A stretch of DNA of 32,000 bases from Clostridia bacterium (GTDB lineage Bacteria; Bacillota; Clostridia; Monoglobales; Monoglobaceae): assembly GCA_045576075.1 (NCBI GenBank), contig JAZNFQ010000031.1:4257-36256 (forward strand), given 5' to 3'. Under the pieces are notes generated by a model that did not search any database, was not told the DNA's origin, and was given only the letters and a program-made list of their open reading frames with translations. Each line of letters begins with the position of its first letter. The stretch's first letter is position 1. Shown piece after piece: positions 3,853-26,046 of the stretch. The translations under genes were made by a program, and so were the position numbers.

Positions 3853-4827
3853 TTACTTTTTAAGCCTCCGCAGGTCACCGCCCACAAAGGCAAGAACGTC
3901 AAACGAGCCTGTAATCCTCGATGCCATACGCCCGCCGTAGATGTCCTCGATTTTTGACGGACCCAAGTTAGAGGATATTACCGTACTCTTTCCTTTGAGA
4001 AGTCTTGAATTTATGATATCAAACAATGCCGCAGACGAATATCCGCTTACAAATTCCGTTCCCATATCATCTATTATAAGCAAATCAACATCATAGGCAT
4101 ATTTTGAGGCGTACTCCGCGCTTGTTTCCTCATCCTCGTCAAAACGCCCGAATTTCAGCTTTTCCAATGTGTCAAGAAGCTGAAAAGCGGATTGATAGTA
4201 CACCGAAAAGCCCCTCTCGAGAGCCTTGTTTGCAATACAGGATGAAAGATAGGTCTTCCCTGTGCCCGCACTTCCGTACATAAAAAGATTTGATTTATTT
4301 TCATCAAAGGTTGTTGCAAAATCGAGGCCCTTGTCATAAATTTTTTTGGCAATCGCAAGTGCAGAATGACCCTTTATGTCAGGGAGCTTTTCAAACATTG
4401 CAAAATCAAAATTCTCAAAGCTTTGCCCGCGCATAGCCGAGGTCAGGTTTGAGTTTGAGCCGATATGCTTTGAAATCATATTTTTCAGGCATTCACAGCG
4501 CGCGCCGTTTTTGTCAAAGCCTGTGTCACGGCACTTATTGCAGGAATAGATTTCGTCGAGATAGTCTTCGGGAAGAGAGAGCTGTTTTAAAATTTTTGCC
4601 TTTTCGCTTTGCGCGGCTTCTATATGACTGCGGATTGCAGAAATGTCACTTGTCCCGCCCAAAACACATTTAGCGAGGGCAACTCCGCCCGCGGCAAGCT
4701 TTGCCTCAACCTCTGCAAATTGGGGCGCGGCAAGACGCACCTCTGCTTCACGTCGGCGAAGCTCCTCTTTATTTTTTCTCCGAATTTCTGAAATTTCCGT
4801 ATTTGCAAGAGAGTATGCAGATTCCAC
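3853..4827 (-). CDS. dnaC: Replicative helicase loader, DnaI/DnaC-like AAA+ ATPase (IstB-like ATP-binding)
   Basis: Walker A is YGSAGTGKTY and Walker B is LLIIDDMGTE. An N-terminal Cys cluster (CNKCRDTG...CEC) matches the DnaI zinc-binding domain. I prefer GTG at 4827, which lies 7 nt after GAGGTG, over the track start TTG at 4833, which lies only 1 nt after the SD. Confidence 0.85.
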   Translation of the reverse strand: MESAYSLANTEISEIRRKNKEELRRREAEVRLAAPQFAEVEAKLAAGGVALAKCVLGGTSDISAIRSHIEAAQSEKAKILKQLSLPEDYLDEIYSCNKCRDTGFDKNGARCECLKNMISKHIGSNSNLTSAMRGQSFENFDFAMFEKLPDIKGHSALAIAKKIYDKGLDFATTFDENKSNLFMYGSAGTGKTYLSSCIANKALERGFSVYYQSAFQLLDTLEKLKFGRFDEDEETSAEYASKYAYDVDLLIIDDMGTEFVSGYSSAALFDIINSRLLKGKSTVISSNLGPSKIEDIYGGRMASRITGSFDVLAFVGGDLRRLKK

Positions 4828-4850
4828 AGTCAATCACCTCTTTTAAGTTA

Positions 4851-5855
4851 TTATACGCCCGTTTCGTCGAGCATCATTTTAAGAATTTCTTCTTCTAATT
4901 CTTTATAGTCGGATTTGTTATCATCATCATAGTTGTTAAGCTTGCTTTTCTTGGTTTTTTCGCTGGGTTTTCTCCCGCCCCCGCGATAGAATTCCTCGTC
5001 TGCGGCCTTGACTTGGGCAACTGTTGTATATCCGTTTGCAATCCAGCTACCGAGAAGCTTATCCATATAGCTCCAGCTGAGCTTGCCCGTATATGTAACT
5101 GTTTTGTCATAGGCAATAGAGATAAGCTCTGTCGGGATTTTCAGCTCGTCTGTCCAGAGACGGATATATTTTTTCTCGGTTGTTGTGAGGGCGCGGTCAT
5201 AAATGCCGAGAATGGAGCGCACAGCGTTTTCTGCGCGGTCAACCGCCTCAAGCTCGGTAACGTATGCCTCTGCCGCCTCGTATGTATCTATCCCCTTGTC
5301 TGCCCAGTCAATCGCCACTGTTTCAAGATATCGCTTGGTGGTCTTACCCTTTTTTGCGGCGTAGGAGAGAAGCATCATTATAACCTCAACGGGAAGCCCG
5401 AGCCAGTCATTAAAGGAAAAGAGCATTTCCATCTCCGACGCTGTCAATACCTTGCCGAGTATGGTTTCGGATTGGTAGAAAAGACCCGAAATCTGTTTGT
5501 TTTGGGTCGCAACCATATTGATTTCCTGTTGCGAGTACGAGGGCTTGCTGGAGAGAATTCTCTTGATTTTCTGCGGCTTGGTGTCAGCAGATGTTTTTGA
5601 ACTATTACGGCTCTTGTTCAGGGAATAACCGCCCTCTAGAGAGATAAATTCGTTTCGGCTTGCCCAATATTCAAATATAAATTCTGCCTTCCCTGAGGAT
5701 ATGTCAAGCGCCGACGCAACCTCGTCAGCAGAGGGGAATACCCCGTCCGCTTCAACGCGGTAGCAGACATACAAATAAACCTGAATATATTCGGGCTTGG
5801 TAAATCTTACATATTTATCTATAAAATCAAATGAAATTGAAACATTCCCGCTCAT
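4851..5855 (-). CDS. DnaD-domain replication initiation protein (B. subtilis DnaB/DnaD family, two DnaD-like C-terminal repeats)
   Basis: 334 aa. It contains two DnaB_2/DDBH2-like segments. The first reads MEMLFSFNDWLGLPVEVIMMLLSYAAKKGKTTKRYLETVAIDWADKGIDT. The second reads YIRLWTDELKIPTELISIAYDKTV...MDKLLGSWIANGYTT. The gene sits directly upstream of the loader, as in the B. subtilis dnaB-dnaI pair. Confidence 0.8.
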   Translation of the reverse strand: MSGNVSISFDFIDKYVRFTKPEYIQVYLYVCYRVEADGVFPSADEVASALDISSGKAEFIFEYWASRNEFISLEGGYSLNKSRNSSKTSADTKPQKIKRILSSKPSYSQQEINMVATQNKQISGLFYQSETILGKVLTASEMEMLFSFNDWLGLPVEVIMMLLSYAAKKGKTTKRYLETVAIDWADKGIDTYEAAEAYVTELEAVDRAENAVRSILGIYDRALTTTEKKYIRLWTDELKIPTELISIAYDKTVTYTGKLSWSYMDKLLGSWIANGYTTVAQVKAADEEFYRGGGRKPSEKTKKSKLNNYDDDNKSDYKELEEEILKMMLDETGV

Positions 5856-5922: not shown

Positions 5923-6702
5923 TTAGCTTGTAACAATTATTATAATCTTAAAAGTTTTTGAATCCACATCGTTGCTAAACGTGGCCACCGTAACACCTTC
6001 GTGATTAGGCTCAACAGTCATCTTGGTAGAGGTTTTCCACGAATCATTATCAAAAGAAACCCTGGCAGCGTAGCCGGAATAAGAAACAGACACGTGGCCA
6101 CTATTTGGCCAGTTAGCTGTAAGTGTAAACTTTCTATTCGTCTCATTTTCATCTACTACAATTATGCTCTCGCTAGCCATGAAATTGTTTGAAGCATATC
6201 CAATATTTCCATTACTTAGTTCTTTGCAAATCGTATCGTAGTAACTACTTTTTTCTTCAAGTGAGGAAATTTTGCCTTTTTGAGAGGAAACTGTACGCTT
6301 TTGAGATGATACAGTTCCAGCAAGATTTTCTATTTCTACAAGTTGAACAATATTCAAAATTACGGATGTCACCATTACAATAGACAAAATCAACACCGTA
6401 GTCAAAAACTTATTGAATTTTACGCCTTTAAAATATTGTTTTCCGCAACCAACGCATTTTTTGCTTTGTGCATCAATTTGACCACCGCAAAACTTGCAAA
6501 ATCTAACTTTTGATTTTTTCGCTTTTTTGTTTTCTTTCAAATTCTTAACAGCTTCTTCTGTCTGAATTTTAATAACAGGATTTAATTCTTCTTTTGGCGT
6601 TGCATTTTCTTGAATTGATGTTTGTTTTTCTATTCTTTTACCGCAATACTGGCAAAACTCACTATCGTCAGGCAAAAGATGTCCGCAATTATAGCACGTC
6701 AT
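5923..6702 (-). CDS. Hypothetical membrane protein D: two N-terminal zinc ribbons, one TM segment, and a beta-rich extracytoplasmic C-terminal domain
   Basis: 259 aa. The two ribbons are CYNCGHLLPDDSEFCQYC (DNA 6643-6696) and CKFCGGQIDAQSKKCVGC (DNA 6445-6498). A Lys-rich linker follows. The TM segment is FLTTVLILSIVMVTSVILNIVQL. A short TVSSQK repeat follows, then about 115 aa of beta-rich sequence. The start overlaps the end of the upstream gene by 14 nt. Confidence 0.75.
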   Translation of the reverse strand: MTCYNCGHLLPDDSEFCQYCGKRIEKQTSIQENATPKEELNPVIKIQTEEAVKNLKENKKAKKSKVRFCKFCGGQIDAQSKKCVGCGKQYFKGVKFNKFLTTVLILSIVMVTSVILNIVQLVEIENLAGTVSSQKRTVSSQKGKISSLEEKSSYYDTICKELSNGNIGYASNNFMASESIIVVDENETNRKFTLTANWPNSGHVSVSYSGYAARVSFDNDSWKTSTKMTVEPNHEGVTVATFSNDVDSKTFKIIIIVTS

Positions 6703-7345
6703 TTTGATTCATCTCCGTATTTGCAAGGATTTTTGTACCGCATTGACTGCAAAACTCACTGTCATTTACTAATTCAAATCCACATTTCCTGCAAAACTTA
6801 ACTTGGTTTGGATTTTCGGTTTGCTCATTGCTATCGTCACTATACGCATATGTGCCCTGATTGAAATTGTCAAACAGATGAATACGTTTTTTCCAATATT
6901 TATATTCTAATGCAAAGAATATTCCATAAGCAATTAATTCGCCAAGGTTTTGCGAAAAGGTATCTTCGTCAAATCCTAAAAGAAGAAGAATTGCTACAAA
7001 CACAACAACCTGGCTTAAATATTGAATTATAAAGTAATATTGCACTCCTTTTTTATTAAAGTGCGCAAGCCAATGTCTTGTCAGTATTGTGCCTACTATT
7101 AAAATCGTATCCAATGCGATTGCAAAACAAAGATATACCGATATATTCCAACTAACTCCCCATAAATCGGCATAATTCATTGGAACGCTTGCTATATCAG
7201 ACAAAAGTCTGATTATGCCAGCAAACAGCCTGAAGTATATATTGAACTTATACCATTTCATACCCAAGCCTTCCATAGCTGCGATATTGTACTTGTGATT
7301 ACGCAATATAGTTAATTCTGAACGTTTGTTGTTTTTACTTGACAT
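6689..7345 (-). CDS. Hypothetical polytopic membrane protein C with a C-terminal zinc ribbon
   Basis: 218 aa with about four hydrophobic segments. The C-terminal ribbon reads KFCRKCGFELVNDSEFCSQCGTK. The SD GAGGAG lies inside the last codons of the upstream gene. Confidence 0.75.
   Translation of the reverse strand: MSSKNNKRSELTILRNHKYNIAAMEGLGMKWYKFNIYFRLFAGIIRLLSDIASVPMNYADLWGVSWNISVYLCFAIALDTILIVGTILTRHWLAHFNKKGVQYYFIIQYLSQVVVFVAILLLLGFDEDTFSQNLGELIAYGIFFALEYKYWKKRIHLFDNFNQGTYAYSDDSNEQTENPNQVKFCRKCGFELVNDSEFCSQCGTKILANTEMNQNDVL
6731..6799 (-). repeat. 69-bp exact repeat, copy 1 (encodes the zinc ribbon of protein C)
   Basis: TTTTGTACCGCATTGACTGCAAAACTCACTGTCATTTACTAATTCAAATCCACATTTCCTGCAAAACTT. 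It is identical base for base to 7367-7435. Confidence 0.97.
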
Positions 7346-7348
7346 TTT

Positions 7349-7663
7349 CTAATTCTCCTCGTAAACTTTTGTACCGCATTGACTGCAAAACTCACTGTCA
7401 TTTACTAATTCAAATCCACATTTCCTGCAAAACTTGATTTTATCCTTTTTGACATTTTGATTATCAGTCGGTGATTTATCATTTTGTGGGTTTTTCACCT
7501 GGTTATACTCGTCCCACTTTCTGCACAGGAAAAATGCTAATGATAGAGTTGCAAAAGTTAAAAACGCAGTGGGAATTCCTCCTAGAATAATTCCATTCTC
7601 TTTTATAACTGCTGTTATTATTGCATTTACTAAAATACATAAAAACCAAATTAAAACTTTCAT
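7349..7663 (-). CDS. Hypothetical small membrane protein B (two TM segments) with a C-terminal zinc ribbon
   Basis: 104 aa with two hydrophobic segments. The ribbon KFCRKCGFELVNDSEFCSQCGTK is identical to that of protein C. The protein ends VYEEN. Confidence 0.75.
   Translation of the reverse strand: MKVLIWFLCILVNAIITAVIKENGIILGGIPTAFLTFATLSLAFFLCRKWDEYNQVKNPQNDKSPTDNQNVKKDKIKFCRKCGFELVNDSEFCSQCGTKVYEEN
7367..7435 (-). repeat. 69-bp exact repeat, copy 2 (encodes the zinc ribbon of protein B)
   Basis: Identical to 6731-6799. The flanking bases differ on both sides (T/C at 6730/7366 and A/G at 6800/7436). Confidence 0.97.
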
Positions 7664-7666
7664 TTT

Positions 7667-8746
7667 CTAATCCTCCTCGTAAACTTTTGTCCCACATTTA
7701 TGACAAAACATACTGTTATTCGGGATAGAGGCACCGCAGTTTTTACAAACACTTACTTGTGCCGTTTCGTTGCTTTCATCAGCTTTATCTCCATCCGATA
7801 TGTTATATGACGAAGTATTCAAATCTTCACCCTCATCTTGAAATAGCAGGGGTGAGGGTTGGTAGCCTTCCAATACCTGTCTCCGTTTTAAAATATTAGT
7901 TCCTACGATGGAGAAAACACAAGTCCATAAAAAATAAGGACTACCAGAAGACTTGCCATTTATTAAAATAAAGAAAATCATTACCCCAAAATTGATACCA
8001 TAGCAAAAAAGATTGTATTTTGCTTTGGTTATAATCTTTTTTCGCATCAAGGCAAAGGCTAATGGGAATGTTGCATATGCCATAAGGGTAATCAGCAACA
8101 TAATTAAAAGTATTGGAACATATACTGTTGGTCCCTTTTGAAACAACTCATAATATGATAACGCTGTTTTTGCATTGCTGGACATAGCCGAATTATCAAC
8201 ATCGATTTTCTCTGAATATGGGTATTTAACACCTTCAATCAAAGATTTAAAATCATCATAATACTCATAATATTCTGTTTTGTTAATTAAAAAATAATAG
8301 CACCATCCATTATTAAAATGAAGAAAATGCAACTGTTCAATGTCATATTCTTGCCCATTTAGAGTGGGTGTTAGTTCTGCTTTGAAATAATCAACATCAT
8401 TATATGTTACTTTTTCAATATTACTGTATCCTGCTCCACTCAGGAGTTCTTTTGCATCCTCAATAGTCATGGCAGACATATTTAGATATTTACGAACTTC
8501 CTCGGTTTCTGCTTCTAAAAAGATTTCTGTTGCAATATCATAACTGCTATATGTAATCACTACTGTTCTGCTTTTATTCATAAACTTTGCGTCGAGATAT
8601 TGCCTTTCTTGAAGAAGAGGAACCTCTGACCAATTTTCAGGTAAGGTAATTTCTGTTCCTGTTTCCTGGTCTATATATGTTGATGCAGCAAAAACATTTG
8701 ATGAACATACCATAATTAAAATAAGAAATACTAATATTTTTTTCAC
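7667..8746 (-). CDS. Hypothetical membrane protein A: signal peptide, an extracytoplasmic domain of about 190 aa, three TM segments, an acidic linker and a C-terminal zinc ribbon
   Basis: 359 aa with a GTG start at 8746, 8 nt after GGAG. The N-terminus MKKILVFLILIMVCSSNVFA/AS looks like a Sec signal. The C-terminal ribbon is CKNCGASIPNNSMFCHKC and the protein ends VYEED. Confidence 0.75.
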   Translation of the reverse strand: MKKILVFLILIMVCSSNVFAASTYIDQETGTEITLPENWSEVPLLQERQYLDAKFMNKSRTVVITYSSYDIATEIFLEAETEEVRKYLNMSAMTIEDAKELLSGAGYSNIEKVTYNDVDYFKAELTPTLNGQEYDIEQLHFLHFNNGWCYYFLINKTEYYEYYDDFKSLIEGVKYPYSEKIDVDNSAMSSNAKTALSYYELFQKGPTVYVPILLIMLLITLMAYATFPLAFALMRKKIITKAKYNLFCYGINFGVMIFFILINGKSSGSPYFLWTCVFSIVGTNILKRRQVLEGYQPSPLLFQDEGEDLNTSSYNISDGDKADESNETAQVSVCKNCGASIPNNSMFCHKCGTKVYEED

Positions 8747-8801: not shown

Positions 8802-10199
8802 TTACTTACCTACGCAGAAGTTTTCAAAAACCTTGTCGATAATCTCTTCCTGTACGGTTTCGCCCGTAACCTCGCCAAGTGCGGAGAGGGCGTCCTCAAG
8901 GTCGATAAACAGAAGGTCAAACGGCATAGAGTCCGCAAGAGAGCTCATAGCGTTTTTAATTGATGCCTGAGCGCGCAGGAGCGCATCTCTTTGTCTTTCG
9001 TTTGCAAGATATACCTCGTCTGCATTGAGCTTGCCGAGTGTAAACATATCGGATATTGCCTCTTCAAGAGCGTCAATCCCGCGGACCTCTTCCCCTTTCG
9101 GAGCGGAGGTATATATCACAGCCTCGGGAGAAATTCCGAAAACCTCTGTCAGACTTATATCCGAAATAACAGATTTCTTATCGGTTTTGTTTATTATCAA
9201 AATTGTGCGTTTACTTTTGAGAGCCTCTGCAATCTGCATATCCTCGTCGGTTATTTCGGTTGATGAGTCAATAACAAAAAGGCAAAGGTCGGCTGTGCGT
9301 ATGTTTTCCTTTGAGCGCTCAATACCGATTTTCTCAACCTCGTCGGACGCTGTGCGTATGCCCGCCGTATCAATAAGGCGAAGGGCGATGCCTCCTACCT
9401 CGGCAAGCTCCTCTATTGTGTCGCGGGTAGTGCCGGGGACATCTGTGACAATTGCGCGTTCAAAGCGGAGCAGAGCATTGAGGATTGATGATTTGCCGAC
9501 ATTCGGCTTGCCCACGATTGCAGTGCGGACACCGTCGCGCAGAATTTTGCCCGTATCAAAGCCGCCAAGCAGAGTTGAAACCTCTGCCTCTAAATACGAC
9601 AACTTTTCCTCAAGTTCCTCATTTGATAATGGGTCAACCTCGTCGGGATAGTCAGCAGTTGCAGAAACGTTTGCCGCAAGCAGCATAACCTCGGAGCGAA
9701 GATGATTTATCTTGTCTGCAAGAGCGCCCGTCAATGCCATCGCGGCATTATGGAGTCCAGGCGTTGAGCTTGAATTCATCAAATCCATAACCGCCTCGGC
9801 ACCGCTTAAATCGGTTTTTCCGTTTATAAACGCTCTGCGGGTAAATTCCCCCGCTTCGGCAAGACGCGCACCACTCTCAAGAAGGCTTGTCAGGATTTTA
9901 TCCGCTGCCAAAAAACCGCCGTGGCAGTTGATTTCCACGACGTTTTCACCCGTATATGATTTTGGGGCGCGCATAAGGGCAACAAGAGCCTCGTCTATGA
10001 TGCAATCGGGCGCGCTCGGGGTGGTTATGCGGCTCAGGGTCAGTTTGTGGCTCTCAAGCTCGGTAACAGATTTGTTGTTATACGGATGTGCCACCTTTGC
10101 TGCAATTTCTGCCGCATTCTCACCGCTCAGGCGAATAATGGCGATGCCTCCCGAACCTCTCGGGGTGGCAATCGCCGCAATAGTATCATTGAGTTTCAT
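8802..10199 (-). CDS. mnmE: tRNA modification GTPase MnmE (TrmE)
   Basis: The N-terminus is MKLNDTIAAIATPRGSGGIAIIRLSG. The G-domain carries GKPNVGKSS and DTAGIR. The C-terminus is FCVGK. I place the start at ATG 10199, preceded by a GGAG SD. The 36 extra N-terminal residues in the ORF track would overlap dnaA and do not look like protein. Confidence 0.95.
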   Translation of the reverse strand: MKLNDTIAAIATPRGSGGIAIIRLSGENAAEIAAKVAHPYNNKSVTELESHKLTLSRITTPSAPDCIIDEALVALMRAPKSYTGENVVEINCHGGFLAADKILTSLLESGARLAEAGEFTRRAFINGKTDLSGAEAVMDLMNSSSTPGLHNAAMALTGALADKINHLRSEVMLLAANVSATADYPDEVDPLSNEELEEKLSYLEAEVSTLLGGFDTGKILRDGVRTAIVGKPNVGKSSILNALLRFERAIVTDVPGTTRDTIEELAEVGGIALRLIDTAGIRTASDEVEKIGIERSKENIRTADLCLFVIDSSTEITDEDMQIAEALKSKRTILIINKTDKKSVISDISLTEVFGISPEAVIYTSAPKGEEVRGIDALEEAISDMFTLGKLNADEVYLANERQRDALLRAQASIKNAMSSLADSMPFDLLFIDLEDALSALGEVTGETVQEEIIDKVFENFCVGK

Positions 10200-10215
10200 A
10201 AAAGTTCTCCGTAAG

Positions 10216-11541
10216 TTAATTTTTGCGGATGTTGTTGACAAGCTCGCGAAGCTTTTCGCCAAGTTCCTCGTCACCGCTGAGGTTTGCGCGCACCTTTTTA
10301 ACAGCATTCATAACAGTAGAATGGTCGCGGTTGAAATCCTCACCTATTTGGGGATAGGATTCGTTTAAAACCTCTCTTGCAAGATACATCGCAATGTGGC
10401 GCGGATATGCCACGTCGTTTGAACGCTTTTTGGTTATAAGCGAGCCTTTTGGCAAATGGTAATATTTTTCAACCTCATCGATTATTACAGCGGTTGTGAT
10501 ATTGCGCTGCGGAAGTGTCGAAATTATCTCCTTAAGCGCCTTTTGCGCAAGCTCTATCGAGATGGTGTTTGTCCGCTCAATTCCCGCATAGGCAAGTATG
10601 CGCTTGACAGCGCCCTCAAGGTCACGGACGTTAGAGCGGATGTTGTTTGCAACATATTCGATTATCTCTTCGTCGAAAGTAAAATATTCAGCCTCAATCT
10701 TTGCACGAAGTATGGCAAGACGTGTTTCATAGTCAGGCGGCTGAACGTCAGCGAGTAACCCCATTTGAAACCTGCCCTTTAATCTGTCGGTCAGATGCGG
10801 GGTTTCAGACGGGAGTCTGTCCGAGGTCAGCACGATTTGGTTGCCCGCCTCGTATATTGCGTTAAAGGTATGGAAGAATTCTTCCTGCGCAAGCTCCTTT
10901 GTTGCAAGGAACTGAACGTCATCTACAAGCAAAAGGTCAACGTTTCGATATTTGTTGCGGAATTCCTGATTGGTTTTCTCGCGGATTGCGGTAACCAGTT
11001 CATATGTAAATTTCTCGCTCGTGGTATAGAGAACCTTTTTGTTTGGATAAAGCTCTGAAAAGCGATTTCCTATTGCCTGCAAAAGATGGGTCTTGCCAAG
11101 ACCGCTACCGCCGTAGAGAAAAAGTGGGTTATATTTCTGCCCCGGGGATTCAGCAACACCGAGAGCCGCCCCGTGTGCAAGGTTGTTGTTTCCGCCGACA
11201 ACAAAGCTGTCAAAGGAATATCTTGGATTAAGCGTGCTCCCGCGGTTAATCGGGTCCTCTGCTTTTTCCGCGCCTTCTGTTGCGAGAGCGGTATCGTTTT
11301 CGACAATTACATTAAGCTCAAAGGAACGGTCAGCGGCAAGCTCAAGACAGCTCTCTATCATTGACCGAAACTTTGTCATTATCATATTTTTATTAAGGCT
11401 GCTGCCGACAGACAGAGTGATAGTATCACTGCTGAGGTCTACTGCCTTTATGGGCTTTATCCATGTGTCAAAGGACACCGCAGAAACCTCCTCTGCCATT
11501 TGCGACAGAACGCTGTTCCAGATTTCGTTTAACTCATTCAC
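10216..11541 (-). CDS. dnaA: Chromosomal replication initiator protein DnaA
   Basis: 441 aa. Walker A is GGSGLGKTHLL and Walker B is LLLVDDVQF. The C-terminal domain IV (HSTVMNAVKKV) is present. The start is GTG, 8 nt after GGGAGG. Confidence 0.97.
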   Translation of the reverse strand: MNELNEIWNSVLSQMAEEVSAVSFDTWIKPIKAVDLSSDTITLSVGSSLNKNMIMTKFRSMIESCLELAADRSFELNVIVENDTALATEGAEKAEDPINRGSTLNPRYSFDSFVVGGNNNLAHGAALGVAESPGQKYNPLFLYGGSGLGKTHLLQAIGNRFSELYPNKKVLYTTSEKFTYELVTAIREKTNQEFRNKYRNVDLLLVDDVQFLATKELAQEEFFHTFNAIYEAGNQIVLTSDRLPSETPHLTDRLKGRFQMGLLADVQPPDYETRLAILRAKIEAEYFTFDEEIIEYVANNIRSNVRDLEGAVKRILAYAGIERTNTISIELAQKALKEIISTLPQRNITTAVIIDEVEKYYHLPKGSLITKKRSNDVAYPRHIAMYLAREVLNESYPQIGEDFNRDHSTVMNAVKKVRANLSGDEELGEKLRELVNNIRKN

Positions 11542-11594
11542 CTTTATATCCTCCCGTTAAAATCGCTGTAAAACCTGTATATTATCACACAAAA

Positions 11595-11620
11595 TGTCTG
11601 TTTTGTATACAAAACAGACA
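11595..11620. promoter_or_regulatory. Perfect 26-bp palindrome upstream of dnaA (candidate operator)
   Basis: TGTCTGTTTTGTA|TACAAAACAGACA, read directly from the sequence. It overlaps the candidate dnaA -10. Confidence 0.5.
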
Positions 11621-11632
11621 CCCCTACATCAA
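11604..11632 (-). promoter_or_regulatory. Candidate dnaA promoter
   Basis: On the minus strand: TTGATG (11632-11627), a 17-nt spacer, then TATACA (11609-11604). The -10 is weak, so this is tentative. Confidence 0.3.
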
Positions 11633-11753
11633 GTAAATTAATCAAAGAAATTATTGGTGTAATATTTCTGTAACATTAATAATAGCAGATAATTCAAAAT
11701 AATTCAACACCTAAATTTATGAAAAATTTGCATCAAAAGGCCGAAAAATAAGG

Positions 11754-11762
11754 ATATCCACA
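11754..11762 (+). promoter_or_regulatory. Near-consensus DnaA box (ATATCCACA, 8/9 match to TTATCCACA)
   Basis: This is the only 9-mer within 1 mismatch of the consensus that I could find on either strand of the 11542-11934 intergenic region. Confidence 0.5.
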
Positions 11763-11874
11763 AAATATTGTTGGAGTCAAAATTTACCTCAACAACATAT
11801 TTGGTTTTTGGTGTAAAAAAATTTTTTTAAAAATTTTTCTGAATTTTAAGGCAGTATAAAATTATTTGTGCGTA

Positions 11875-11903
11875 TTGACTTTTTCCCCAAAAAAGTGTAA
11901 AAT
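11875..11903 (+). promoter_or_regulatory. Sigma-A type promoter for gltX
   Basis: TTGACT (11875-11880), a 17-nt spacer, then TAAAAT (11898-11903), with TG immediately upstream of the -10. Confidence 0.55.
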
Positions 11904-11937
11904 TATATGATAAAACATTACTTGGAGGGAAACCTTG

Positions 11938-23995: not shown

Positions 23996-25921
23996 TTATT
24001 TCATTAACTCTGATATACGATGGATAAAGAGTGCAACCTCAATTCTGCTTGCATTGCCCTGCGGATTTATGGTTCCGTCGCCGTAGCCGCTCATCAATCC
24101 GCTGTCTATGCATGCCGCAATAGCCTCGCGCGCATAGAAATCAATATAATCAGCATCTGTAAACTTATTAAGAACTGCAGTGTTCGGGATAGATGTCAAT
24201 ATACCCTCGCGGCTCATAACACGGTATGCAAGGGTCGCCATATCCTGTCGGCGAACAGGTGCGTCGGGGTCAAAGCGGTTATCACCAACGCCTGATGCAA
24301 TTCCGAGTGCGCGTGCTACGCCAATTTCGTTGTAGTAATAGGCACCCTTATAAACATCGTCAAAATTATCGGTAAATTCCGCTGTCTTACCAAGAATTCT
24401 AAGCAGCAAAACAGTATTATCCGCTCTCGTTATATTTGCGTCGGGGTCAAATTCGGTTTCACTTCTGCCCTTTATTACGCCTTGTGCGGCAAGGGCGTTT
24501 ACCGCATCCATTGCCCACCAATAATCGTCCATATCTGTAAATTTATTTACATACTTCCCTCCGATTGTCGGAACAACATAATCGTCGGTGTTTGACATAT
24601 TGTCGAGAGTAGGTGGAACGGTATTCTCCTGAACATCTTCAGAGGCATTATCCCCTGACACAGAAACGGCGTTTTCGGGCGGAGTGGCATCAGTGCTGTT
24701 TACTTCCTGCATAAGTGCATATATAGACGGATTTTCAAGAAAATCGTTATATGTAAAGCAGCAATAACCACCGATGCTTGGGTTTTCTCTGCCGTTTAGG
24801 ATGTGTGTGCGAAGCTCGTTTGTACCATTTTCGCCCGTCCACGCGGGGAGGGTGCTTGATGTTGTGCGATATGCGCCCTCGCCGATATAGAGATTTACGT
24901 CTGTGCCCCGAACAACGTCTGACCACCAATTGCAGAGTGTGGTATAATCCGCGATTTCATATCCAATATTCCAATAAATCTGCGGCATAATATAGTCTAC
25001 CCAGCCGTTTTTAACCCAAGCCCTTGAGTCTGCATAAATCTTGCTGTAGGAGCCGCCGCCCGCTGTATCGCTGCCATCTTGCATCTCGGTTTTATTTGCC
25101 CAAATTCCGCGCGGGCTGATACCAAAGCTTATATCGGGGTCGGCTTTGTGGAGTCTCTCATCAAGTGTGCGCACAAGCTTGTCAACATTGGCTCTTCGCC
25201 AATCATCGCGGTTTGGATATTCGTCCTTTGAATACGAATACGTAGCATCATCGTTAAAGCTTGCGTCGGGATAGAAATAATCGTCCATATGCAAGCCGTC
25301 AACATCATAATTCTCAACTATCTCTAGCGCCCCGTTTACTATAAGCTCAATAGATGCGCTGTCACCGGGGTTAAAATACATCTTCCCATTGCTGTCGGTC
25401 ATCACAAGATTGGGGTTTAAAACCGCGGGATTGTTTGAAGCGAGAAGGTCATTTTCCGATGACGAGTTTGTTATTCTGTATGGGTTAATCCACGCATGAA
25501 GCTGAAGCCCTCTTGCGTGTGCCTCCTGGATTGCAAAAGCGAGCGGGTCAAAGTTATCACTCGGGGCGAGGCCTTGTGTGCCTGTAAGATATCTTGACCA
25601 CGGGAAAATTTCTGATTTATAGAGCGCGTCAGCACTTGGGCGAACCTGAAAGAATACTGCGTTAAAGCCCATCGCCTTGCAGTTATCAAGTATTTCGATA
25701 AGCTCTTCTTTTAAAACTGATGTGTCCGTGGTAGGGGCTGACGGGTAGTCAATGTTTGCAACAACTGATACCCACACGCCTCGAAGCTCTGTATCCTCCA
25801 CCGCACTTACACTGCGGACTGCAGGCGGATAAAAAGCTGCGATAGAAATTACGGCGCAAATAAACAGCGCGAGCATTCTGAGAGTAAAACTGTGGTTCCT
25901 GCCTGTGTTTTTGTTAATCAC
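23996..25921 (-). CDS. Secreted glycoside-hydrolase-like family 10 (GHL10/YngK-type) protein with three C-terminal SLH domains
   Basis: The catalytic-like domain starts ELRGVWVSVVANIDYPS. Three SLH-like repeats follow (FTDMDDYWWAMDAVNALAAQGVIKG, FDDVYKGAYYYNEIGVARALGIASG, FTDADYIDFYAREAIAACIDSGLMSG). The likely start is GTG at 25921, 10 nt after AAGGAGA, which gives a signal peptide with a basic n-region. ATG at 25876 is the alternative. The track start at 26038 adds 39 implausible residues. Confidence 0.8.
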   Translation of the reverse strand: MINKNTGRNHSFTLRMLALFICAVISIAAFYPPAVRSVSAVEDTELRGVWVSVVANIDYPSAPTTDTSVLKEELIEILDNCKAMGFNAVFFQVRPSADALYKSEIFPWSRYLTGTQGLAPSDNFDPLAFAIQEAHARGLQLHAWINPYRITNSSSENDLLASNNPAVLNPNLVMTDSNGKMYFNPGDSASIELIVNGALEIVENYDVDGLHMDDYFYPDASFNDDATYSYSKDEYPNRDDWRRANVDKLVRTLDERLHKADPDISFGISPRGIWANKTEMQDGSDTAGGGSYSKIYADSRAWVKNGWVDYIMPQIYWNIGYEIADYTTLCNWWSDVVRGTDVNLYIGEGAYRTTSSTLPAWTGENGTNELRTHILNGRENPSIGGYCCFTYNDFLENPSIYALMQEVNSTDATPPENAVSVSGDNASEDVQENTVPPTLDNMSNTDDYVVPTIGGKYVNKFTDMDDYWWAMDAVNALAAQGVIKGRSETEFDPDANITRADNTVLLLRILGKTAEFTDNFDDVYKGAYYYNEIGVARALGIASGVGDNRFDPDAPVRRQDMATLAYRVMSREGILTSIPNTAVLNKFTDADYIDFYAREAIAACIDSGLMSGYGDGTINPQGNASRIEVALFIHRISELMK

Positions 25922-26046
25922 TATAAATGCATCTCCTTTTTTAGCAGGACAATATGCCCTGCTCGTTTTTCGCCTGAAAATACGGCACCTATACAATCTT
26001 ATGAGTATGTAATGTAACTTAATGCACCGATGGTGCAATTCATTAT

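Follow-up and report, generated by a model that had tools for sequence, protein, structure and literature searches.

Firmicute genomes abound in membrane proteins whose only annotation is "zinc ribbon domain-containing protein", and few unexplained proteins are more common in them. To our knowledge, only TcaA, Llmg_0524/0526 and YdjG have been studied among ribbon membrane proteins of this kind. TcaA of Staphylococcus aureus controls the retention of wall teichoic acid as well as sensitivity to glycopeptides and antimicrobial peptides (PMC10328498). In Lactococcus lactis, the CX2CX10CX2C motifs of Llmg_0524 and Llmg_0526 have been shown to bind zinc, PhoA fusions placed the motif-bearing end of two such proteins in the cytoplasm, and removal of the motif from Llmg_0524 altered growth and lysozyme resistance; the authors of that work assigned the motif mainly a role in protein stability (PMC4628341). 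YdjG of Bacillus subtilis lies in the pspA-ydjGHI envelope-stress operon (PMC11237479, PMC9239133). Here we analyze a cassette of four genes, A to D, from a Clostridia bacterium (assembly GCA_045576075.1, contig JAZNFQ010000031.1, positions 4,257 to 36,256 of the forward strand); these 32,000 nucleotides are referred to as the window, and coordinates are those of the window unless a relative's locus is named. The cassette fits an operon of the Llmg_0524/0526 type, in which membrane proteins each carry a cytoplasmic CX2CX10CX2C motif (topology here predicted), and protein D has the TcaA-like layout of N-terminal cytoplasmic ribbons, a single transmembrane (TM) helix and an extracellular C-terminal part (likewise predicted).

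The combination of ribbon, TM segment and extracytoplasmic domain (ecto-domain) has precedents in TcaA, Llmg_0524/0526 and YdjG. Arrays of such genes recur in other genomes in a conserved order, and the array is a real conserved system in dozens of gut Clostridia, most likely one tied to the cell envelope. We put the probability that A to D form a hetero-oligomeric complex of the membrane and envelope, with tethered cytoplasmic ribbons, at roughly 40%.

Gene organization and the shared zinc ribbon

The cassette consists of four adjoining open reading frames (ORFs) whose 3' ends contain related repeats:

7667..8746, minus strand: gene A, 359 amino acids (aa); signal peptide, PsbP-like ecto-domain, module of three TM helices (3-TM module), disordered linker and C-terminal zinc ribbon
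7349..7663, minus strand: gene B, 104 aa; 2-TM hairpin (aa ~2-46), linker and C-terminal ribbon (aa 78-100; nucleotides (nt) 7364-7432)
6689..7345, minus strand: gene C, 218 aa; ~4 TM helices (aa ~30-150) and C-terminal ribbon (aa 184-206; nt 6728-6796)
5923..6702, minus strand: gene D, 259 aa; two ribbons, one TM helix, helical stalk and immunoglobulin (Ig)-like domain
7661..7720, minus strand: A/B junction repeat; ribbon 3' end, GAGGAG Shine-Dalgarno within Y-E-E-D codons, TAG, AAA and the ATG of B
7343..7402, minus strand: B/C junction repeat; laid out as the A/B junction, with GTT TAC GAG GAG AAT TAG AAA ATG
6731..6804, minus strand: C ribbon-coding segment; direct repeat D3, 97% identical over 74 nt to the B ribbon segment 7367-7440

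Genes A and B are separated by 3 nt, as are B and C, and C overlaps D by 14 nt. The ORFs, their positions, strand and spacing, and the sequences of all five ribbons (each CxxC-x10-CxxC) agree with those given in an earlier note, made from the DNA letters of the window before this analysis. At the DNA level, the repeated 3' ends of A, B and C include the stop codon, the ribosome-binding site (RBS) and the next ATG. The A/B junction reads GTT TAC GAG GAG GAT TAG AAA ATG, and the two junctions form direct repeat family D1 (7661-7720 vs 7343-7402, 83% identical). For both B and C, the GAGGAG Shine-Dalgarno falls within the final codons (V-Y-E-E-D/N) of the gene before it, so that the acidic tail conserved after the ribbon also provides the RBS of the next gene. 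The ATG of D overlaps the end of C, with GGAG 10 nt upstream of the D start. Judged from this arrangement, the A-B-C-D junctions appear to be translationally coupled. Additionally, the identity of the B and C ribbon DNA indicates a probable recent duplication or gene conversion.

Each protein has a recognizable ribbon. Against Pfam Zn_Ribbon_1 (PF13240, cutoff 25 bits), A, B and C scored 30.5, 29.2 and 28.9, while D passed DZR (PF12773; 32.5 vs a cutoff of 27.3) and reached 24.3 with PF13240, slightly under its cutoff. The consensus of 194 array ribbons is F-C-[RK]-K-C-G-x-x-L-x-[DE]-D-S-x-F-C-x-x-C-G-[TK]-K, and we infer that the ribbons of A-D bind zinc. The motif CxxC-x8-14-CxxC is absent from all remaining ORFs of >=60 aa in the window, so the clustering is not due to chance. 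BLAST among the four proteins and their relatives aligned nothing except the ribbon, and A-D appear not to be paralogs. The HxxxCxxC motif of zinc-dependent anti-sigma (ZAS) proteins is absent; the array ribbons are four-cysteine Zn_Ribbon_1 domains. Sequence searches of the Protein Data Bank (PDB) with the ribbons returned no related solved structure at significance, the resemblances to ribbons of reverse gyrase, eL40 and Nop10 being non-significant (E=0.02-0.6). As the earlier note had stated, we found no enzyme, ATPase or regulator signature in the cassette (Pfam, NCBIfam, PADLOC and PHROGs).

The same note had placed all five ribbons in the cytoplasm, and several lines of evidence agree with it. 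For A, a cytoplasmic ribbon is predicted from the signal peptide, which places the ecto-domain outside, and from the odd number of TM helices after that domain (3; 1 in most homologs). In the standalone 3-TM module, a fusion of this module to D and a fusion of B to D, every ribbon falls on one common face. TM ends on the ribbon side are flanked by basic residues: the cytoplasmic loop of the A 3-TM module, MRKKIITKAK, is strongly basic, and the first 92 residues of D contain 18 K+R. The PhoA fusions from L. lactis provide the experimental precedent.

Ribbon-membrane gene arrays in other genomes

GTDB species-representative genomes were scanned with the D alignment, which gave 75 loci. The ORFs of these loci were sorted by local hidden Markov models (HMMs) for the A ecto-domain, A 3-TM module, B TM region, C TM region, DUF805-like proteins and D ecto-domain. 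Scan loci, loci of close relatives and the window were then pooled and duplicates removed; the scan was seeded by D-derived patterns and ORF calling was mechanical. L-numbers denote relatives' loci and P-numbers protein records. The final set comprises 41 non-redundant arrays of 3-7 consecutive same-strand ribbon-membrane genes each (3 genes, n=20; 4, n=10; 5, n=8; 6, n=2; 7, n=1), mostly from Oscillospiraceae, Acutalibacteraceae and other Clostridia. The earlier note had named co-occurrence and gene order in other genomes beforehand among the checks of its proposal; both are conserved across the 41 arrays.

An A-type gene takes first place in 34 of the 41 arrays. The middle slot is held by B-type, C-type, DUF805-type or standalone 3-TM ribbon proteins, and the distal slot by one to four ribbon-TM-ecto proteins with varied ecto-domains. 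We scanned 73 middle and distal members with Pfam, setting aside A-type, B-type, standalone 3-TM and D-ecto-matching members. All 73 matched PF13240 at E<=1e-3; further domains were rare, with DUF805 (8), CpXC (4), trypsin-like (2), TPR (2) and SHOCT (2). Representative gene orders, in which HTH denotes a helix-turn-helix protein, are as follows:

L002 and L013: HTH, YpsA, A, C-like, D
L008: lipoprotein, A, C-like, D
L004: A, B-like, D-like with a different ecto-domain, GH127
L006: fakA, A, B-like, D, recG
L009: A' (2 ecto-domains, 1 TM helix and ribbon), DUF805 with ribbon, D
L010-L012 (Intestinimonas): YpsA, A', DUF805 with ribbon, B-like, D

Three kinds of fusion join different array parts. 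The A ecto-domain and 3-TM module are joined in the window and in L023, and two neighboring genes encode them in L016, L030 and others. In L026, the 3-TM module is fused to a D ribbon, TM helix, stalk and Ig domain, and in L022 the B hairpin is fused to the same D segments. Together with gene order and coupling, these fusions indicate that the array parts probably work together. A solitary D homolog was found in L028. As a side observation, L030 and L040 come from one metagenome-assembled genome (MAG; JAZQEG01, contigs 17 and 24), so loci encoding a D-type N-terminus may occur more than once per genome.

Close relatives carry A-B-D, A-C-D or A-B-C-D, and recombination between the ribbon-coding repeats would add or remove middle genes. 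The B and C ribbons, along with two near-identical ribbons from Intestinimonas, had prompted the idea that ribbons evolve in concert as a sign of ribbon-ribbon contact. We rejected this as a general rule: mean ribbon identity was 0.342 within and 0.350 between arrays, and a near-identical pair (>=80% identity) occurs in only 8 of the 41 arrays. Ribbon homogenization is thus local, not general.

Protein A

The features of protein A are:

8681..8746, minus strand: signal peptide (aa 1-22), Sec-type, putatively cleaved between MKKILVFLILIMVCSSNVFA and AS; hydropathy peak 2.38, helix 2-16 in the model, kept in homologs
8213..8680, minus strand: ecto-domain (aa 23-178), extracytoplasmic, PsbP/Mog1/DcrB/LpqN fold; predicted local distance difference test score (pLDDT) ~70-90 (AlphaFold2)
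7868..8131, minus strand: 3-TM module ("Atm", aa 206-293); helices 206-233, 241-263 and 270-293 (AlphaFold2)
7682..7750, minus strand: ribbon (aa 333-355), CKNCGASIPNNSMFCHKCGTK, tethered by disordered linker 294-332 (pLDDT <40)

Gene A starts with the GTG at 8746. This start is supported because GGAG lies 8 nt upstream and because all homologs begin MKK.... The public annotation of A (P0001, 348 aa) begins MVCSS..., 11 residues downstream, which removes the n-region of the signal peptide (window 8714-8746). The putative cleavage site was read from the V-F-A motif. The extracytoplasmic part following the cleavable signal peptide is ~180 aa and reaches residue ~205, against the ~190 aa given in the earlier note.

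That note had also likened the exposed domain to PsbP/DUF1795 proteins, which holds at the level of the fold and not at that of the Pfam family. The AlphaFold2 model is an alpha-beta-alpha sandwich that resembles PsbP in Foldseek searches, matching CyanoP (2lnj, E=1.4e-7; 2xb3, E=3.8e-7) with a target-normalised template-modelling score (TM-score) of 0.55-0.58. There were 27 PDB matches at E<=1e-3, nearly all to PsbP, LpqN, Mtc28 or Apa. In contrast, Pfam PsbP scored A at 14.3 bits (E=0.04), below the gathering cutoff of 23.5, and the A-family profile had no match at E<=0.1 among PDB sequences. By its model, the ecto-domain would belong to the PsbP/Mog1 fold class, outside the Pfam family. Bacterial members of this fold are extracytoplasmic scaffold or binding proteins of the envelope.

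The 3-TM module is the best-conserved part of A. Mean identity to homologs is 0.75 in this module, 0.64 in the ribbon, 0.60 in the ecto-domain and 0.36 in the linker. The module is a separate gene in many other arrays, and these standalone ORFs of 146-200 aa match its HMM at E=1e-36 to 1e-45. A word-indexed search found just 8 full-length relatives of A. When 1.84 billion cluster representatives were searched exhaustively with a profile, 2,211 passed E<=1e-3 and 296 passed E<=1e-30 (the ~2,200 being representatives at the 50% identity level). Protein A of the window differs from most of its homologs, in which the PsbP-like domain occurs in two tandem copies and is followed by one TM helix rather than three. 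Many relatives are 450-750 aa long with two or three ecto copies. Separately, 14 stretches of P0214 (1,297 aa) match the ribbon end of the A profile, an apparent poly-ribbon protein.

Proteins B and C

By hydropathy, B has two TM helices, followed by the linker and ribbon, and the B-type TM HMM matched 20 other arrays. The B-like proteins of L004 (1705-2163) and L006 (2424-2882) are 152 aa long and carry an extra Cys-rich module after the ribbon (KKCE[LM]CD...YCE...NVC.EC) that the window B does not have.

In protein C, two segments exceed the hydropathy threshold (70-88 and 105-123), and two weaker ones were read by eye (~33-53 and 135-150), which gives ~4 TM helices. C-type orthologs at ~70% identity occur in L002, L008, L013 and L035. 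We considered whether C is a divergent DUF805 protein (PF05656) and rejected this: there was no Pfam match, and hhalign against DUF805-like array proteins gave a probability of 0.55%. In C-like proteins of L002 (2512-3375) and L008 (3242-4084), a ~65-aa cytoplasmic module (FK..V.IYD...YYA[IV]EK...K.....C.K..W..QV) precedes the ribbon. This module has no match in Pfam, and it takes the place of the ribbon at the C-terminus of the A homolog P0008.

Protein D

Protein D is organized in the opposite direction, with its ribbons at the N-terminus:

6631-6702, minus strand: ribbon 1 (aa 1-24)
6433-6504, minus strand: ribbon 2 (aa 67-90), separated from ribbon 1 by a disordered linker
6340-6414, minus strand: TM helix (aa 97-121)
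6214-6339, minus strand: helical stalk (aa 122-163), ~42 residues
5926-6213, minus strand: Ig-like beta-sandwich (aa 164-259), ~95 residues, pLDDT ~90 (AlphaFold2)

The AlphaFold2 model (pLDDT 78 overall) predicts a single unbroken helix, 98-163, that forms both the TM segment and the stalk. The earlier note had D exposing a domain of ~115 aa. A domain is indeed predicted to be exposed, but the extracytoplasmic part is 138 aa (122-259) and divides into the ~42-residue stalk and the ~95-residue Ig-like domain. The top Foldseek matches of the latter were Ig-like domains of the S-layer protein SbsC (E=7e-5, root-mean-square deviation 2.2-2.4 A over 92 residues, 21% identity), with Ig domains of titin and filamin ranking next. 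According to these models, the ecto folds of both A (PsbP/LpqN/DcrB) and D (S-layer-like Ig) are predicted binding or scaffold folds.

Mean identity of D to its homologs is 0.68 in the Ig domain, 0.65 and 0.64 in the ribbons, 0.47 in the stalk, 0.35 in the TM helix and 0.24 in the linker. As in A, conservation suggests that both faces of the protein are constrained and the tethers are not. The stalk contains the heptads TVSSQKR, TVSSQKG and KISSLEE (window 6268-6315, aa 130-145). Homologs have 0-3 heptads, which suggests that stalk length may vary; Tandem Repeats Finder (TRF) detected no DNA tandem repeat beneath the heptads. D has at least 283 relatives. The few that are named are called "zinc ribbon domain-containing protein" (NCBI), besides one generic Joint Genome Institute (JGI) label, and come from Intestinimonas butyriciproducens, Ca. 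Fimivivens, Ca. Choladocola and Clostridia MAGs. Searches of Pfam and NCBIfam with D at E<=1 returned ribbon families only and no TcaA-type family.

Genomic location, neighbors and mobility

In the window, the cassette lies among same-strand housekeeping genes. Upstream are mnmE (8802 to ~10199) and dnaA (10216-11541), so that the cassette is 1.5-5.6 kb from dnaA; downstream are genes for a DnaD/DnaB_2-domain protein (4851-5855) and a DnaC/IstB-like ATPase (3853-4833). No regulator adjoins it. The GC content of the cassette is ~34%, compared to ~46% in the flanks, and GC at third codon positions (GC3) is 0.28-0.33 in the cassette genes vs 0.45-0.54 in the neighbors. Similarly, 33 of 34 arrays are AT-richer than their flanks, by a mean of 7.4 points. 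Array GC follows host GC (0.30-0.47), which argues for long residence. No integrase or transposase appears in the ORF and Pfam annotation of the cassette flanks. Rfam found no RNA family anywhere in the window, in which no dedicated tRNA scan was made.

Array location is not conserved: arrays lie between fakA and recG, beside GH127 and elsewhere. At the fakA-recG site, L001 (GCA_045538835.1) carries a clean 1.54 kb deletion relative to L006 (L001 10940; L006 2276-3817). This deletion removes the ribbon tail of A, as well as B and D, and leaves a 318-aa ribbon-less A abutting recG.

YpsA, found upstream in two early loci, had been a candidate for a conserved non-ribbon partner. This was rejected after Pfam scans of 61 upstream and 62 downstream neighbors. 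The commonest upstream family was Xre-type HTH (6/61), and YpsA of the SLOG family was found in 4/61; neither is present in the window, and nothing recurred downstream. No enzyme, regulator or mobile-element gene is a conserved partner of the arrays. YpsA directly precedes the array in L002 (746-1279), L010 (4006-4476) and two other loci. Sigma factor families occur neither in the window nor among the 25 commonest families of each neighbor set.

We also rejected a phage, plasmid or defense origin, since PADLOC, PHROGs and tblastn against phages and plasmids revealed nothing beyond the ribbon. PADLOC gave no match for A, B or C, and one spurious PtuB match for D (E=0.004) via the ribbon region. 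PHROGs gave weak, ribbon-borne matches to "moron" membrane proteins. By tblastn, 50,697 phage records contained no homolog of A or D, and 72,556 plasmids contained none of D.

Several further observations concern the window. Genes dnaA (minus strand) and gltX (plus strand) diverge over a 393-nt AT-rich gap (11542-11934), and GC skew changes sign at ~10-12 kb, which together suggest a replication origin. DnaA boxes, with one mismatch allowed, are not enriched (10 vs 7.3 expected); one is at 11754. The mnmE ORF as listed (8802-10307) overlaps the end of dnaA. Because TrmE_N begins at residue 42, the true start is probably the Met of MKLND at ~10199, just past the dnaA stop. The position of mnmE directly downstream of dnaA, with the DnaD-like/DnaC-like pair 3 kb beyond, is unusual. 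At 23996-26038 (minus strand), the window encodes a 680-aa protein with a GHL10 glycosyl-hydrolase-like domain and three SLH domains, which implies that the host probably anchors surface proteins to secondary wall polymers. A protein with SLH and trypsin domains is encoded near the L001 locus.

Discussion

We propose that the four genes constitute one translationally coupled operon module that would encode a hetero-oligomeric envelope complex, in kind a multi-gene counterpart of TcaA, Llmg_0524/0526 and YdjG. On the outside, in the zone of the wall, A would present a PsbP/Mog1-type binding domain, and D an Ig-like domain on a helical stalk of ~6 nm. The conserved 3-TM module of A and the small B and C proteins would form the membrane core. 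Inside, the Zn(Cys)4 ribbon of each subunit would hang from a flexible tether of ~30-40 residues with little sequence conservation. The ribbons may be stable zinc-folded modules that set the topology and through which the subunits dock or cluster, by contacts among the ribbons themselves or with one common partner encoded outside the array. The most likely role would be in organizing or maintaining the cell wall or surface layer, as for TcaA and Llmg_0524. Arrays could grow and shrink through recombination at the repeated ribbon-coding ends.

The case for a complex is indirect and derives from conserved order, translational coupling and the three kinds of fusion, while the envelope role is suggested by the three studied proteins of this architecture, TcaA, Llmg_0524/0526 and YdjG. 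The resemblance of the D Ig domain to S-layer domains and the SLH protein of the window are circumstantial and lend this role weak support. Six observations weigh against our proposal. Ribbon identity is no higher within arrays (0.342) than between them (0.350), so there is no signal of ribbon co-evolution or homotypic pairing. The middle slot is held by non-homologous proteins (B, C, standalone 3-TM and DUF805), which is unusual for a machine of fixed stoichiometry. None of the 73 scanned members has a wall-binding domain (LysM, SH3, PASTA, SLH or CWB), and no envelope-stress regulator is linked to the arrays among the 61 upstream and 62 downstream neighbors. Consensus scans found no convincing promoter or terminator at the cassette borders. 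Lastly, the 1.54 kb deletion in L001 indicates that the array is dispensable at least there.

The alternative that survives best, although we consider it doubtful, is that there is no complex at all. The products would be independent membrane proteins in which a fast-folding ribbon serves as a topology lock or stability element, clustered through repeat-driven accretion. Ribbon-coding ends and junctions are indeed repeated at the DNA level, the genes in the middle and distal slots vary widely and lack homology to one another, co-evolution of ribbons within arrays is not seen, the D homolog of L028 is solitary, and the L. lactis authors favored a stability role for the motif (PMC4628341). However, accretion does not readily account for an order that is kept (A-type first in 34 of 41) across families with GC from 30 to 58%, for three independent kinds of fusion that join different subunits, or for translationally coupled junctions. 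Additionally, since only 8 of 41 arrays have a recently homogenized ribbon pair, recombination alone does not explain why the genes stay together.

Transmembrane signaling is quite unlikely. Here the ecto-domains would sense an envelope or environmental cue, and a cytoplasmic regulator would be held and released by the tethered ribbons, as anti-sigma factors do or as when a transcription factor is sequestered at the membrane. The layout of D (zinc module, one TM helix, ecto-domain) is anti-sigma-like, conserved ends on a flexible tether are consistent with such a switch, and Xre-type HTH is the commonest upstream neighbor family (6/61). Yet no sigma factor, kinase or response regulator is conserved beside the arrays, an HTH accompanies only ~10% of them, and the cassette in the window has no adjacent regulator. 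The ribbons are of the four-cysteine Zn_Ribbon_1 type and not ZAS HxxxCxxC, and simple sequestration would not call for more than one ribbon per array.

We assign the same low probability to a conflict or surface-variation island, that is, a horizontally mobile array that alters the surface so as to block phages, bacteriocins or host factors, for instance through masked receptors or superinfection exclusion. Such an island would account for the AT-richness of 33 of 34 arrays and the low GC3 of the cassette, the varying insertion sites, the presence/absence polymorphism at the fakA-recG site, the variety of distal ecto-domains and the weak ribbon-mediated matches to PHROG "moron" membrane proteins. 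Against this, PADLOC gave no match, A and D are missing from the phage records and D from the plasmids, and the annotated flanks have no integrase or transposase. The ecto-domains are conserved among orthologs (0.60-0.68) rather than hypervariable, and array GC tracks that of the host.

Zinc ribbons of other proteins often bind nucleic acids. A ribbon cluster that binds DNA or RNA near the origin, between dnaA/mnmE and the dnaD/dnaC-like genes, is nevertheless very improbable: for all the proximity of the cassette to dnaA, where GC skew changes sign, and the faint resemblance of its ribbons to reverse gyrase, eL40 and Nop10, this location is unique to the window, the PDB resemblances fall short of significance, DnaA boxes do not exceed chance, one relative has lost most of the array by deletion, and nothing supports the nucleic-acid docking surface or link to replication timing raised in the earlier note.

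The envelope complex can also be framed more broadly, as a member of an unrecognized, self-contained class of multi-subunit envelope machines in Oscillospirales-type Clostridia, whose multivalent hub of flexibly tethered ribbons would recruit a common partner to sites defined by the ecto-domains. We regard this as unlikely. Candidate partners for such a hub would be the ribosome or translocon, cytoskeletal or divisome proteins, or nucleic acid; if it is true, the ubiquitous "zinc ribbon domain-containing" membrane proteins of Firmicutes would share a docking code. Independent of this, the array offers a delimited set of genes for studying the role of cytoplasmic ribbons, and it is a candidate envelope system of gut bacteria that are important yet hard to study. 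If the envelope role is correct, the system may affect wall architecture, antibiotic or lysozyme sensitivity, or surface recognition. Tandem ribbon-membrane genes in Clostridia would not astonish specialists; the array is nevertheless widespread in important gut taxa.

Comparison with characterized proteins

The ecto-domain of A has a fold in common with PsbP/Mog1/DcrB/LpqN (DUF1795-like) proteins, with LpqN, Mtc28 and DcrB also matched. A differs from PsbP-fold proteins in joining the domain to a 3-TM module and a cytoplasmic ribbon within one polypeptide.

YdjG is comparable as a membrane protein with two zinc ribbons and a TM segment, and has been proposed to be part of a membrane-associated complex (PMC11237479, PMC9239133). 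It differs in carrying an NTF2-like domain where D has an Ig-like one. Moreover, Pfam scans of neighbors and members found no PspA, band-7 or TPM partners in the arrays, unlike the ydjG operon.

TcaA is like D in layout: one TM helix connects a zinc finger inside the cell to a large extracellular region (PMC10328498). However, TcaA is a single gene in the tcaRAB locus with no multi-ribbon array, and D has two ribbons and a stalked Ig-like domain of ~95 aa, far smaller than the TcaA ectodomain (PMC10328498). We therefore describe D as TcaA-type in layout.

The small membrane proteins encoded by the L. lactis llmg_0524-0525-0526 operon have 2 TM and 1 TM segments, and CX2CX10CX2C is present in each (PMC4628341). 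As predicted for the cassette, the motif is cytoplasmic; it is also stable, no other recognizable domain is present, and the phenotype concerns the cell wall (lysozyme) and growth (PMC4628341). The ribbons are N-terminal in both Llmg_0524 and Llmg_0526, whereas they are C-terminal in three of the four cassette proteins. Two ribbon proteins are encoded in the L. lactis operon, compared to four in the window, and a PsbP-like first subunit is missing there. The hosts also belong to different orders, Lactobacillales and Oscillospirales-type Clostridia. In the literature searched, we found no description of an ordered array of A, middle and D genes, of its fusions, or of its AT-rich, relocating behavior.

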